Shown: piece by piece, positions 47,977 to 51,645 of the stretch | How the letters are laid out: every line of letters starts with the position of its first letter | Position numbering within the stretch: position 1 is the stretch's first letter | Assembly (NCBI RefSeq): GCF_003334405.1 | Contig: NZ_QOWM01000003.1 | From: Escherichia coli | Lineage (GTDB): Bacteria; Pseudomonadota; Gammaproteobacteria; Enterobacterales; Enterobacteriaceae | DNA length: 64,000 nucleotides | Strand: one strand, 5' to 3' | Translations under genes and position numbers: made by a program | Notes under the pieces: generated by a model | Told to the model about the DNA's origin: nothing | Databases searched by the model: none | What the model saw: the letters and a program-made list of their open reading frames with translations, nothing else

Positions 47977-48558
47977 ATGGCGGTTCAAAAGAATGTTATC
48001 AAAGGCATACTGGCAGGTACGTTTGCGCTAATGCTGAGCGGTTGTGTCACTGTGCCGGACGCCATTAAAGGCAGCAGTCCCACGCCGCAACAAGATTTAG
48101 TTCGGGTGATGAGTGCGCCGCAGCTGTACGTTGGTCAGGAGGCACGCTTTGGTGGCAAAGTGGTTGCGGTACAAAACCAGCAAGGGAAAACTCGCCTGGA
48201 AATTGCTACCGTACCGCTGGACAGCGGAGCCAGACCGACGCTGGGAGAACTTTCTCGCGGTCGCATTTATGCCGATGTGAACGGTTTTCTGGACCCGGTG
48301 GATTTCCGTGGACAACTGGTTACGGTAGTCGGGCCAATCACTGGTGCGGTTGACGGCAAAATCGGCAATACGCCCTATAAATTTATGGTGATGCAAGTAA
48401 CGGGTTACAAACGTTGGCATTTAACCCAGCAGGTGATTATGCCGCCTCAGCCGATTGATCCATGGTTTTATGGCGGTCGTGGCTGGCCCTATGGCTACGG
48501 CGGATGGGGCTGGTATAATCCCGGCCCCGCGAGAGTACAAACAGTTGTAACTGAATAA
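47977..48558 (+). CDS. yeaY: Slp-family outer-membrane lipoprotein YeaY
   Basis: Track ORF 193 aa with a lipobox (LSGC). Confidence 0.88.
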
Positions 48559-48587
48559 TTGCTTGTTTTTAAAGAAAAAGAAACAGC

Positions 48588-48604
48588 GGCTGGTCCGCTG
48601 TTTC
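48588..48604. promoter_or_regulatory. FadR-operator-like site (distal) upstream of fadD
   Basis: ggctggtccgctgtttc resembles the FadR consensus CTGGTCnGACCTG; also part of an inverted repeat after yeaY. Confidence 0.35.
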
Positions 48605-48673
48605 TGCATTCTTACGGTAAAGATAAAAATAAATAGTGACGCGCTTCGCAACCTTTTCGTTGGGTAATTATCA

Positions 48674-48690
48674 AGCTGGTATGATGAGTT
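48674..48690. promoter_or_regulatory. FadR-operator-like site (proximal) in the fadD promoter
   Basis: agctggtatgatgagtt about 75 nt upstream of the fadD start; fadD is a known FadR target. Confidence 0.45.
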
Positions 48691-48762
48691 AATATTATGT
48701 TAACGGCATGTATATCATTTGGGGTTGCGATGACGACGAACACGCATTTTAGAGGTGAAGAA

Positions 48763-50448
48763 TTGAAGAAGGTTTGGCTTAACCGTTATCCCGCGGACGT
48801 TCCGACGGAGATCAACCCTGACCGTTATCAATCTCTGGTAGATATGTTTGAGCAGTCGGTCGCGCGCTACGCCGATCAACCTGCGTTTGTGAATATGGGG
48901 GAGGTAATGACCTTCCGCAAGCTGGAAGAACGCAGTCGCGCGTTTGCCGCTTATTTGCAACAAGGGTTGGGGCTGAAGAAAGGCGATCGCGTTGCGTTGA
49001 TGATGCCTAATTTATTGCAATATCCGGTGGCGCTGTTTGGCATTTTGCGTGCCGGGATGATCGTCGTAAACGTTAACCCGTTGTATACCCCGCGTGAGCT
49101 TGAGCATCAGCTTAACGATAGCGGCGCATCGGCGATTGTTATCGTGTCTAACTTTGCTCACACACTGGAAAAAGTGGTTGATAAAACCGCCGTTCAGCAC
49201 GTAATTCTGACCCGTATGGGCGATCAGCTATCTACGGCAAAAGGCACGGTAGTCAATTTCGTTGTTAAATACATCAAGCGTTTGGTGCCGAAATACCATC
49301 TGCCAGATGCCATTTCATTTCGTAGCGCACTGCATAACGGCTACCGGATGCAGTACGTCAAACCCGAACTGGTGCCGGAAGATTTAGCTTTTCTGCAATA
49401 CACCGGCGGCACCACTGGTGTGGCGAAAGGCGCGATGCTGACTCACCGCAATATGCTGGCGAACCTGGAACAGGTTAACGCGACCTATGGTCCGCTGTTG
49501 CATCCGGGCAAAGAGCTGGTGGTGACGGCGCTGCCGCTGTATCACATTTTTGCCCTGACCATTAACTGCCTGCTGTTTATCGAACTGGGTGGGCAGAACC
49601 TGCTTATCACTAACCCGCGCGATATTCCAGGGTTGGTAAAAGAGTTAGCGAAATATCCGTTTACCGCTATCACGGGCGTTAACACCTTGTTCAATGCGTT
49701 GCTGAACAATAAAGAGTTCCAGCAGCTGGATTTCTCCAGTCTGCATCTTTCCGCAGGCGGTGGGATGCCAGTGCAGCAAGTGGTGGCAGAGCGTTGGGTG
49801 AAACTGACCGGACAGTATCTGCTGGAAGGCTATGGCCTTACCGAGTGTGCGCCGCTGGTCAGCGTTAACCCATATGATATTGATTATCATAGTGGTAGCA
49901 TCGGTTTGCCGGTGCCGTCGACGGAAGCCAAACTGGTGGATGATGATGATAATGAAGTACCACCAGGTCAACCGGGTGAGCTTTGTGTCAAAGGACCGCA
50001 GGTGATGCTGGGTTACTGGCAGCGTCCCGATGCTACCGATGAAATCATCAAAAATGGCTGGTTACACACCGGCGACATCGCGGTAATGGATGAAGAAGGA
50101 TTCCTGCGCATTGTCGATCGTAAAAAAGACATGATTCTGGTTTCCGGTTTTAACGTCTATCCCAACGAGATTGAAGATGTCGTCATGCAGCATCCTGGCG
50201 TACAGGAAGTCGCGGCTGTTGGCGTACCTTCCGGCTCCAGTGGTGAAGCGGTGAAAATCTTCGTAGTGAAAAAAGATCCATCGCTTACCGAAGAGTCACT
50301 GGTGACTTTTTGCCGCCGTCAGCTCACGGGATACAAAGTACCGAAGCTGGTGGAGTTTCGTGATGAGTTACCGAAATCTAACGTCGGAAAAATTTTGCGA
50401 CGAGAATTACGTGACGAAGCGCGCGGCAAAGTGGACAATAAAGCCTGA
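48763..50448 (+). CDS. fadD: Long-chain fatty acid--CoA ligase
   Basis: Track ORF 48697-50448 trimmed to the TTG start giving [24 protein letters not shown]... (561 aa). Confidence 0.93.
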
Positions 50449-50468
50449 GCGTTAAGTCAGTCGTCAGA

Positions 50469-50493
50469 CGCCGGTTAATCCGGCGTTTTTTTT
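50469..50493 (+). terminator. Rho-independent terminator after fadD
   Basis: Hairpin cgccggttaatccggcg followed by tttttttt. Confidence 0.7.
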
Positions 50494-50517
50494 GACGCCC
50501 ACTAAAGAGAAAACAAT

Positions 50518-51645
50518 TTGAATTACCAAATGATTACCACGGACGATGCGCTGGCTTCTTTGTGTGAAGCCGTCCGTGCCTTTCCGGCGATAGCCCTGGA
50601 TACTGAATTTGTTCGTACGCGCACTTATTACCCGCAGCTGGGGTTGATTCAACTTTTCGATGGCGAGCATCTGGCGCTAATCGATCCACTCGGGATCACC
50701 GACTGGTCACCGCTGAAAGCGATCCTGCGCGATCCGTCCATCACAAAATTTCTCCATGCAGGCAGTGAAGATCTGGAAGTGTTCCTCAATGTCTTTGGCG
50801 AATTACCACAACCCTTGATTGACACGCAAATCCTTGCTGCCTTCTGCGGACGCCCGATGTCATGGGGTTTCGCTTCCATGGTGGAAGAGTATTCCGGCGT
50901 TACGCTGGACAAGAGTGAATCGCGCACCGACTGGCTGGCCAGACCGCTGACCGAACGTCAGTGTGAATACGCAGCGGCGGATGTCTGGTATCTGTTACCG
51001 ATCACCGCCAAGCTTATGGTAGAAACGGAGGCCTCCGGCTGGCTACCTGCGGCGCTGGATGAATGCCGCCTGATGCAAATGCGTCGTCAGGAAGTCGTTG
51101 CGCCGGAAGATGCCTGGCGTGATATCACCAATGCCTGGCAATTACGCACACGCCAACTGGCCTGTCTGCAACTGTTAGCCGACTGGCGACTGCGCAAGGC
51201 GCGAGAGCGCGATCTGGCGGTGAACTTTGTCGTGCGTGAAGAGCATTTGTGGTCGGTAGCGCGTTATATGCCGGGAAGTTTAGGCGAACTGGACAGCCTG
51301 GGTTTATCCGGTAGCGAAATCCGCTTTCACGGTAAAACGCTGCTAGCGCTGGTGGAAAAAGCGCAGACATTGCCGGAAGATGCCTTACCGCAGCCGATGC
51401 TTAACCTGATGGACATGCCGGGTTATCGTAAAGCGTTTAAAGCGATTAAGTCGCTGATTACTGACGTGAGCGAAACGCATAAGATCAGCGCCGAATTGCT
51501 GGCATCGCGTCGGCAAATCAACCAACTGCTGAACTGGCACTGGAAACTGAAACCGCAGAACAATTTGCCGGAGCTGATTTCCGGCTGGCGTGGTGAGCTG
51601 ATGGCGGAAGCATTACACAATTTATTGCAGGAATATCCGCAGTAA
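50518..51645 (+). CDS. rnd: Ribonuclease D
   Basis: Track ORF 375 aa with a TTG initiation codon (established for rnd); DEDDy exonuclease and HRDC domains. Confidence 0.93.
   Translation: MNYQMITTDDALASLCEAVRAFPAIALDTEFVRTRTYYPQLGLIQLFDGEHLALIDPLGITDWSPLKAILRDPSITKFLHAGSEDLEVFLNVFGELPQPLIDTQILAAFCGRPMSWGFASMVEEYSGVTLDKSESRTDWLARPLTERQCEYAAADVWYLLPITAKLMVETEASGWLPAALDECRLMQMRRQEVVAPEDAWRDITNAWQLRTRQLACLQLLADWRLRKARERDLAVNFVVREEHLWSVARYMPGSLGELDSLGLSGSEIRFHGKTLLALVEKAQTLPEDALPQPMLNLMDMPGYRKAFKAIKSLITDVSETHKISAELLASRRQINQLLNWHWKLKPQNNLPELISGWRGELMAEALHNLLQEYPQ

Follow-up and report, generated by a model that had tools for sequence, protein, structure and literature searches.

The DNA between the end of yeaY and the start of rnd is, with a probability of about 0.9, the classical yeaY-fadD-rnd segment of the Escherichia coli K-12 chromosome, in which every part is a regulatory feature described before (Table 1). 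The yeaY-fadD-rnd region is 100% identical to that of E. coli K-12 MG1655 and was found in 5,426 of 5,426 E. coli genomes. It lies within a window of 64,000 nucleotides, the whole stretch of DNA that was analysed. All the elements named in an earlier note, which had been made from the letters alone (the TTG starts of fadD and rnd, two FadR-like operators upstream of fadD, the fadD terminator and the small RNA SroD), are present where it placed them and are already in the literature; nothing in them is new. Because all four of its claims match published biology and add nothing to it, the importance of the analysis is mainly that of a correctness check, with several by-products of practical value: the RefSeq start of rnd, the design of fadD knock-outs and an example of weak start codons.

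Table 1. Features of the yeaY-fadD-rnd region, in window coordinates
Feature	Position	Strand	Remarks
Perfect inverted repeat straight after the yeaY stop codon	48579..48605	+	Terminator-like match; contains FadR site 2
FadR operator site 2, GGCTGGTCCGCTGTTTC	48588..48604	+	Weak, distal; within EMSA probe 48580-48612
CRP-cAMP binding probe (published)	48617..48664	+	Probe sequence maps exactly; block highly conserved in 79 species
FadR operator site 1, AGCTGGTATGATGAGTT	48674..48690	+	Overlaps the fadD core promoter; within EMSA probe 48664-48699
Shine-Dalgarno-like GGGG and in-frame ATG 48730	48721..48732	+	May serve as a second start, for a FadD of 572 aa
fadD Shine-Dalgarno sequence, GAGGTGA	48752..48758	+	Invariant or almost invariant among 80 loci; duplex energy -7.1 kcal/mol on average
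fadD coding sequence	48763..50448	+	TTG start, 561 aa, long-chain acyl-CoA synthetase; RefSeq annotation; AMP-binding ligase relatives in PDB
SroD RNA	50407..50492	+	Final 42 nt of fadD, then 3' UTR and terminator; Rfam RF00370
rnd promoter-like element inside the fadD 3' end	50411..50439	+	-35 GTGACG (50411-50416), 17-nt spacer, -10 GACAAT (50434-50439)
Outer helix CGTC (50462-50465) : GACG (50494-50497)	50462..50497	+	Encloses the hairpin and U-tract
Intrinsic terminator hairpin and eight T	50466..50493	+	3' end of fadD and SroD; also rnd leader hairpin and U-rich translational enhancer
rnd degenerate Shine-Dalgarno sequence, AAAGAG	50504..50509	+	8 nt before TTG; AGAGA invariant or nearly so in the alignment
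rnd coding sequence	50518..51645	+	TTG start, 375 aa, RNase D

The promoter region of fadD follows the published arrangement. Both of the operators proposed for FadR lie inside probes used in published electrophoretic mobility shift assays, in which the protein bound site 2 more than 10-fold more weakly than site 1 (Feng and Cronan, 2012). They also differ in conservation among 79 loci: most positions of site 1 are identical in about 0.9-1.0 of the sequences, compared with a moderate 0.5-0.8 per position in site 2. The CRP core, as located by eye, is AGTGA-N6-TCGCA at 48635-48650. A scan for the FadR motif had also been proposed. Against the 17-bp consensus ANCTGGTCNGACNTGTT, site 1 shows 3 mismatches and site 2 shows 5; the count of matches is not above chance, the window holding 6 matches of the quality of site 1 where 3.9 are expected. 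Because its matches fall within chance, the consensus scan was rejected as evidence by itself, and the claim of two operators rests on the EMSA probes and on cross-species conservation. The shorter core motif GCTGGTNNGNTG occurs 4 times against an expected 0.5, but this enrichment test is circular, the motif having been taken from the two sites themselves. The perfect inverted repeat that follows yeaY is probably the terminator hairpin of that gene, and FadR site 2 also sits within this terminator-like repeat.

The published transcription start of fadD is 60 bp upstream of the start codon, corresponding to 48703. A promoter scan with a cut-off of 9 of 12 missed the published fadD promoter, and its only match on the + strand (48689-48718) is inconsistent with the published transcription start and was discarded. 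The gene is transcribed from a sigma-70 promoter, its RNA beginning about 60 nt upstream of the coding sequence. FadR represses fadD through the strong operator over the core promoter together with the weak one farther upstream, and CRP-cAMP activates it.

Translation of fadD begins at a TTG codon (48763-48765), with the Shine-Dalgarno sequence GAGGTGA located 4 nt upstream. RefSeq places the start at the same codon and fadD is a member of the EcoGene verified-start set. Among 78 other Enterobacterales species the start codon is TTG in 74 and GTG in 4, so that one or the other is used in all 78. The start codon of rnd is likewise conserved across the same species, with TTG in 74, GTG in 3 and, in Edwardsiella, an ATG one codon upstream. 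This persistence contrasts with that of internal leucine TTG codons, which drift: they are kept in just 2-25 of the 78 species, compared with 74 of 78 for each start TTG, and where leucine is invariant in a column, the fraction of identical codons reaches at most 0.88 (fadD) and 0.79 (rnd). Both weak start codons are kept by purifying selection across the order, and their persistence would fit selection for translation that is low and tuned. Translation from UUG 48763 is driven by the strong Shine-Dalgarno sequence. The proximity of the two TTG starts, on the other hand, was rejected as a meaningful coincidence: annotated UUG starts number 81 among about 4,310 genes, and the neighbouring pair is not significant because a genome is expected to hold about 1.5 pairs of this kind.

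The earlier note had held initiation at an in-frame ATG elsewhere against a TTG start. For fadD this holds in part, as tetracycline ribosome profiling gives a weak signal at ATG 48730, 33 nt upstream of the TTG, which does not remove the TTG start. Of the two genes, only fadD has what was counted as a competing in-frame start nearby, owing to this ATG, and because the upstream codon is conserved, in frame and carries a reported initiation signal, the fadD TTG may not be the sole start. The gene could then have two functional in-frame starts, UUG 48763 (561 aa) and a conserved AUG 48730 that either yields a 572-aa proteoform or serves to load ribosomes for the weak UUG; this is a possibility to be taken seriously, though the balance is tilted against it. 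Of 79 species loci, 70 have the ATG in an open frame with fadD, but it is absent in several Yersiniaceae, and in two Chimaeribacter species the upstream ATG is out of frame and accompanied by a stop codon. The G-rich, Shine-Dalgarno-like box 5 nt upstream alternates between GGGG and GAGG among species, both of which are Shine-Dalgarno-compatible, and the mean duplex energy with the anti-Shine-Dalgarno sequence is -5.5 kcal/mol, compared with -2.2 kcal/mol for background ATGs. The Hon-yaku predictor also favoured the site. The published list of starts includes the entry "alt-N'(new) fadD -33" with a TetRP value of 4.04 and a CmRP value of 0 (Nakahigashi, 2016); the signal is weak and comes from one study. 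Substitutions in codons 2-7 of the extension number 34, 33 and 64 at the first, second and third codon positions, the third position thus changing about twice as often as either of the others. This constraint is nevertheless far looser than that of the true fadD coding sequence (49/44/79 against 13/6/94 substitutions by codon position), and the conservation of the block may alternatively reflect a regulatory motif in RNA or DNA. The published N-terminus of FadD is MKKVW, in line with the EcoGene verified set, and this counts against a second start.

For rnd, the reading frame begins MNYQMITTDD at TTG 50518-50520, and a stop codon lies four codons upstream of the TTG. The native RNase D is reportedly MNYQ at its N-terminus. 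The 375-aa RNase D of PDB entry 1YT3 is identical and begins MNYQ, Adams et al. worked with a curated K-12 record in which the gene starts at the TTG, and the literature describes a UUG start together with a U-rich enhancer. The TTG start proposed for rnd is therefore upheld by conservation, by the curated record, by the structure and by the UUG-start literature. RefSeq, in which the PGAP pipeline annotates the protein as WP_001307844.1, instead places the start at ATG 50530, 12 nt downstream. According to that annotation the protein would have 371 aa and the TTG would be just upstream sequence, a reading that is very improbable. PGAP uses this ATG in two genomes, and every one of the 57 Enterobacteriaceae loci sampled has the codon; in other families, however, it is replaced by TTG, CTG, ATA, TTT, TAC or TTA, while the upstream TTG and the residues N-Y-Q/T/S are conserved. 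Furthermore, there is no Shine-Dalgarno sequence before ATG 50530, and the TTG is the start in the curated K-12 record as well as in the PDB entry and in published work. RefSeq has probably misplaced the start of rnd, since several other families lack a start codon at the position of ATG 50530; this conclusion is drawn from sequence comparison. Translation of rnd starts at UUG 50518, and the Shine-Dalgarno sequence before it is weak.

The 3' end of fadD, which the earlier note had placed with its terminator at 50469-50493, is found as a hairpin and T-run. The hairpin comprises a G+C-rich stem of 9 bp (50466-50488) and is followed by eight T at 50486-50493. Published Term-seq 3' ends from three data sets fall in the T-run at 50489, 50491 and 50492. 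The stem is 99.7% paired in 46 Enterobacteriaceae species, and 68 of 79 species carry the motif CGCCRG..CYGGCG. T runs of 4-8 follow the stem in 54 of these 68 hairpin-matching species loci, and the other 14, of Yersiniaceae type, have 1-2 T. This intrinsic terminator ends the transcripts of fadD 20-45 nt beyond the stop codon.

The suggestion that SroD maps to the same site was likewise right: the Rfam search matched RF00370 (sroD) over model positions 1-86 of 86 with 115.2 bits (gathering score 50, E = 1.4e-22), and the literature agrees, describing SroD as an RNA from the fadD 3' end whose function is not known. A discrete RNA of roughly 86-90 nt is described in literature that cites the RNomics screen (Vogel, 2003), and its 5' end was originally defined by cDNA cloning. 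The 86-nt RNA is the terminator-protected 3' tail of the fadD mRNA, most likely released by endonucleolytic processing within the last fadD codons. The Rfam model draws a 5' hairpin with two 3-bp helices; among 46 Enterobacteriaceae the share of paired cells is just 64.5% in one and 66.7% in the other. A GC/CG swap occurs at one pair of this 5' domain, yet 24 sequences are unpaired at that pair, and the hairpin was set aside as weakly supported by covariation. Because this hairpin is poorly conserved, SroD is most likely a by-product. Alternatively, SroD could be a genuine trans-acting sRNA derived from the 3' UTR (like CpxQ, SroC and FarS) that ties fatty-acid uptake to other genes. Such a role would agree with SroD being a discrete RNA that forms an Rfam family by itself, with an (ARN)n-type motif at nt 31-54, with the conservation of the sequence across Enterobacteriaceae and with a fold more stable than those of shuffled sequences (z = -2.8). 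It is nonetheless unlikely: the literature reports no target or phenotype and no trans-acting function has been demonstrated, a biofilm phenotype is absent according to published work, SroD is published as not Hfq-dependent in Klebsiella, and the 5' hairpin is not conserved. The sequence conservation can be explained instead by the C-terminal codons of fadD, the candidate rnd promoter within them and the hairpin of the rnd leader, and the Rfam model matches only the family in which the embedded promoter-like element also occurs.

This element, a candidate promoter for rnd, would lie within the final 13 codons of fadD, with a predicted transcription start near 50446-50448. In 46 Enterobacteriaceae all bases of the -35 hexamer are invariant, as are A2, A4, A5 and T6 of the -10 hexamer, and the promoter-like bases remain invariant even at silent positions and in species whose protein sequence is different. 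The element is present in 52 of 79 loci, all of Enterobacteriaceae type. The rnd promoter described in earlier work is said to agree with it. The candidate scores 8 of 12 in the promoter scan and was therefore not reported at the cut-off of 9. With a promoter within the end of fadD, the rnd leader would contain the same hairpin and U-tract that terminate the fadD transcript. According to literature that cites Zhang and Deutscher (1992), translation of rnd depends on the U-tract as a ribosome-binding enhancer, which is needed for 30S binding.

An outer helix encloses the hairpin and U-tract and can form only in transcripts that read through the terminator or start at the rnd promoter. Its cells are 85-94% paired and 2 of its pairs are changed on both sides. 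None of 500 shuffles reaches the observed score, slid controls score far lower, and the fold has a z-score of -4.9. A different outer pairing is available in E. coli, between GCGUUAA (50449-50455) and UUGACGC; it is not conserved in Enterobacter-type sequences, and the proximal helix is preferred for this reason. Taken jointly, these features allow a tentative proposal that goes beyond the published segment and is, as a whole, rather doubtful. In this proposal, fadD would have a second initiation region at -33 nt, conserved throughout the order and consisting of the Shine-Dalgarno-like box and the AUG, that lengthens the protein by 11 residues or loads the UUG; the almost invariant hairpin, the U-tract and the covarying outer helix would act as one conserved cis-element that ends fadD transcripts and gates both read-through into rnd and the translation of rnd from the promoter within fadD, with SroD as just a by-product.

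These details are of use beyond the locus. The gene fadD is heavily engineered for fatty-acid production and the upstream AUG merits a direct test. Designs for knock-outs or start-codon changes could bring side effects if they leave out of account this AUG, SroD or the rnd promoter within fadD, and one published study of a fadD deletion already needed a control for SroD. The two TTG starts provide a clean example of weak start codons kept by purifying selection across a bacterial order.

The upstream region is like the dual-FadR-operator promoters of fadD and fadL (Black, 1992; Feng and Cronan, 2012), with the same two sites separated by about 68 bp, a CRP site in the interval and the same transcription start 60 nt before the start codon; there is no difference. 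The possible second start resembles the dual-initiation genes found by TetRP, among which fadD is listed with an alternative start at -33 nt (Nakahigashi, 2016); in fadD this start is a candidate. The SroD sequence is the type sequence of its family (Rfam RF00370; Vogel et al., 2003), located at the same site in the fadD 3' end and fadD-rnd spacer and ending at the same terminator. There is no difference in sequence from the Rfam family, whose annotated 5' hairpin is without comparative support outside close relatives. Like CpxQ, SroC, DapZ and Vibrio FarS (from fabB), SroD shares the terminator of its parent mRNA and has its 5' end inside or just after the coding sequence, and FarS also derives from a FadR-controlled lipid gene. 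In contrast to these RNAs, SroD is not known to depend on Hfq or to have a seed or a target, and the structure of its 5' part is not conserved. The rnd leader (Zhang and Deutscher, 1989, 1992) is the same as that described, with the UUG, weak Shine-Dalgarno sequence, G+C-rich hairpin and eight U at 50466-50520. Two traits not found in the available literature are added here to this known leader: the sequence of its hairpin is almost invariant across the order, and an outer helix with some covariation surrounds the U-tract.

The fadD-rnd region of the window (48400-50700) is 100% identical to that of E. coli K-12 MG1655 and is found in 5,426 of 5,426 complete E. coli genomes. The gene order is yoaA, tsaB, yeaY, fadD and rnd (+ strand), then yeaX (- strand). 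Window positions (w) are converted as U00096.2 = 1,936,533 - w and NC_000913.3 = 1,938,509 - w, verified against published coordinates. For comparison, the fadD-rnd locus was retrieved from 80 Enterobacterales species. The finding is already known, because every element described here has been reported before; the residual value lies in comparative evidence for SroD as a by-product, in a likely RefSeq start-site error for rnd and in a conserved upstream candidate start for fadD.

Features of the fadD-rnd region, in window coordinates
Feature	Position	Strand	Description
FadR-like box, site 1	48674-48690		upstream of fadD
FadR-like box, site 2	48588-48604		upstream of fadD
SD-like GGGG box and in-frame ATG	48721-48732		fadD leader, 33 nt upstream of TTG
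fadD start (TTG)	48763	+	opens 561-aa FadD frame
Sigma-70-like pair, GTGACG-N17-GACAAT	-35 50411-16, -10 50434-39	+	inside last 13 fadD codons
Outer helix	50462-65 with 50494-97		encloses terminator hairpin and U-tract
Terminator	50466-50493		fadD 3' end; 9-bp G+C-rich hairpin, then eight T
rnd start (TTG)	50518	+	opens 375-aa RNase D frame

Both fadD and rnd begin at TTG, as the earlier note had read them. The RefSeq annotation of fadD starts at this codon, the Hon-yaku paper counts fadD among the genes whose EcoGene start has been verified by experiment, and a 7-nt match to the anti-Shine-Dalgarno (anti-SD) sequence, GAGGTGA, ends 4 nt before it. The aligned codon is TTG in 74 and GTG in 4 of the 78 other species, with ATG in none of them, and an SD of the GAGGTG or AGGAG type lies upstream in every locus compared. 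The control was the set of 13 Leu codons that are TTG inside E. coli fadD: each is still TTG in only 2-25 of 78 species, including positions at which Leu never changes, and in Leu-invariant columns the same codon is never found in more than 88% of species. Conservation of the start codon, set beside this drift, indicates that what is maintained in this TTG is a start codon, and a weak one in particular.

At the rnd start the aligned codon is likewise TTG in 74/78 species and GTG in 3/78, Edwardsiella having an ATG one codon upstream; eight internal TTG codons used as a control stay TTG in 3-16 of 78. RNase D in the crystal structure (PDB entry 1YT3) has 375 aa and the N-terminus MNYQ, in the curated K-12 record that Adams et al. 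worked from the start lies 27 nt past the 3' end at 50491 (i.e., at 50518), and reviews cite UUG initiation and a U-rich translational enhancer for the rnd mRNA. RefSeq/PGAP instead annotates a 371-aa protein (WP_001307844.1) from ATG 50530 (50530-50532) in both genomes inspected. This codon is ATG only within Enterobacteriaceae (elsewhere TTG, CTG, ATA, TTT, TAC or TTA), the N-Y-Q/T/S residues upstream of it are conserved where the ATG is not, and no SD precedes it. The RefSeq start is probably wrong. In 1988 Zhang and Deutscher reportedly described a 1,128-nt rnd coding region from UUG, in exact agreement with the length of 50518-51645. The adjacency of two TTG starts was rejected as a meaningful coincidence: with 81 annotated UUG starts among ~4,310 genes, ~1.5 such pairs per genome are expected by chance.

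The sigma-70-like pair at the end of fadD is probably the rnd promoter. All six bases of the -35 element and A2, A4, A5 and T6 of the -10 element are invariant in 46 Enterobacteriaceae species, including three consecutive synonymous sites and species with different encoded residues; the element (50411-50439) is absent in other families. Transcription of rnd is predicted to begin ~70 nt ahead of the UUG, close to the stop codon of fadD; work of Zhang and Deutscher from 1989 is said to agree with this. The rnd leader would then contain the fadD terminator. The stem ACGCCGG...CCGGCGT of this hairpin is nearly invariant across the order (motif in 68/79 species, one-base variants in most other loci), which is unusual for a plain terminator. 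The outer helix, whose formation requires a read-through or rnd-promoter transcript, is 85-94% paired with some two-sided pair changes, and scores higher than every shuffle and every slid control. The helix is suggestive, not proven, given that the species compared are related and that the register is shifted in some lineages.

The leader varies among species loci. In Enterobacter-type leaders (L009, L010, L012, L016-L018, L021, L022, L026-L028, L035, L041, L042, L044, L046, L048) an ATG in the rnd frame comes after the U-tract, 9 codons (~27 nt) ahead of rnd: TTTTTTATGGGCGC. At this position E. coli has TTTTTTTTGACGCC. One Citrobacter amalonaticus genome (L052) carries a 1,636-bp insertion in the fadD-rnd spacer, and in two other species (L042, L047) the spacer measures 174-226 bp and includes additional hairpins.

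SroD, which the earlier note tentatively placed at the fadD 3' end and terminator, is recovered there by the Rfam sroD model (RF00370), with an end-to-end match at 50407-50492 (115.2 bits; gathering score 50). Elsewhere in the window, Rfam matches at 15265-15409 and 30898-31358 comprise the antisense overlapping pair SraC/RyeA (- strand) and SdsR/RyeB (+ strand) and a full-length match to the cspA thermoregulator model, by map position presumably the cspC locus. Three Term-seq data sets place 3' ends at 50489, 50491 and 50492, which lie 27-29 nt 5' of rnd and carry the label of primary fadD/sroD 3' end (Adams et al., 2021, supplement); one data set there also has a 3' end inside rnd (50626, ~108 nt into the CDS). 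Overexpression of SroD in a screen produced no phenotype, and the RNA was not Hfq-dependent in Klebsiella.

Across the 46 Enterobacteriaceae, pairing reaches 99.7% in the terminator stem and 65-67% in the Rfam-consensus 5' hairpin of SroD. Among the genera sampled, the model matches 10 of 11 in Enterobacteriaceae and 0 of 9 in other families, the same range as the promoter-like element embedded in the sequence. The poor 5' hairpin pairing and this shared range suggest that conservation of the family can be explained by the fadD C-terminal codons, the embedded promoter and the shared hairpin. The SroD 5' end (50407), with GAA before and UUA after, is a plausible RNase E-type site, and no promoter-like sequence was seen upstream of it; together these make processing the likeliest origin. 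The comparative tests thus favor SroD as a by-product of the shared fadD-terminator/rnd-leader element over SroD as an independent regulator.

Upstream of fadD, both FadR sites are established. Published EMSA probes map exactly onto the two operators that had been proposed (48664-48699, site 1; 48580-48612, site 2) and onto the CRP site (48617-48664); FadR binds strongly at site 1 and >10-fold more weakly at site 2, acyl-CoA releases FadR, CRP activates, and transcription starts 60 bp before the start codon, at 48703 (Feng and Cronan, 2012). Both boxes lie where the earlier note had put them, but the consensus scan is by itself uninformative: it gives 6 matches at ≤3 mismatches where 3.9 are expected, and site 2 departs from the consensus at 5 positions. 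Per-position conservation in 79 species loci is 90-100% for site 1 and the CRP box and about 50-80% for site 2. Site 2 lies within a perfect 10-11 bp inverted repeat (48579-48605) that immediately follows the stop codon of yeaY and is probably the terminator of that gene; this overlap may be why the site is weak yet conserved.

Initiation may also occur at ATG 48730, which 70/79 species loci share, in frame and open. A G-rich box (GGGG in some species, GAGG in others) lies 5 nt before it, with a mean anti-SD duplex energy of -5.5 kcal/mol, which falls between the values for background ATGs (-2.2) and for the SD of the fadD TTG (-7.1). The same site is listed as 'alt-N'(new) fadD -33' (572 aa, TetRP 4.04, CmRP 0; Nakahigashi et al., 2016, Table S5). 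Parsimony changes in extension codons 2-7 are 34/33/64 at codon positions 1/2/3, a bias owed chiefly to ACG ACG AAC, the three codons that follow the ATG; the true CDS has 13/6/94. However, the tetracycline ribosome profiling (TetRP) signal is weak, constraint on the extension is loose, several Yersiniaceae have no ATG, and in two Chimaeribacter species it is out of frame. We put the probability of a real second initiation site at about 0.35. The reported signal touches the reading of TTG as the start and does not overturn it, and an ATG 48730 serving as the sole fadD start is highly improbable. For fadD, the Hon-yaku predictor favored a site 11 codons upstream of the verified start; for iclR, as for fadD, both this predictor and TetRP flag an alternative start at a distance of exactly 33 nt (11 codons) upstream.
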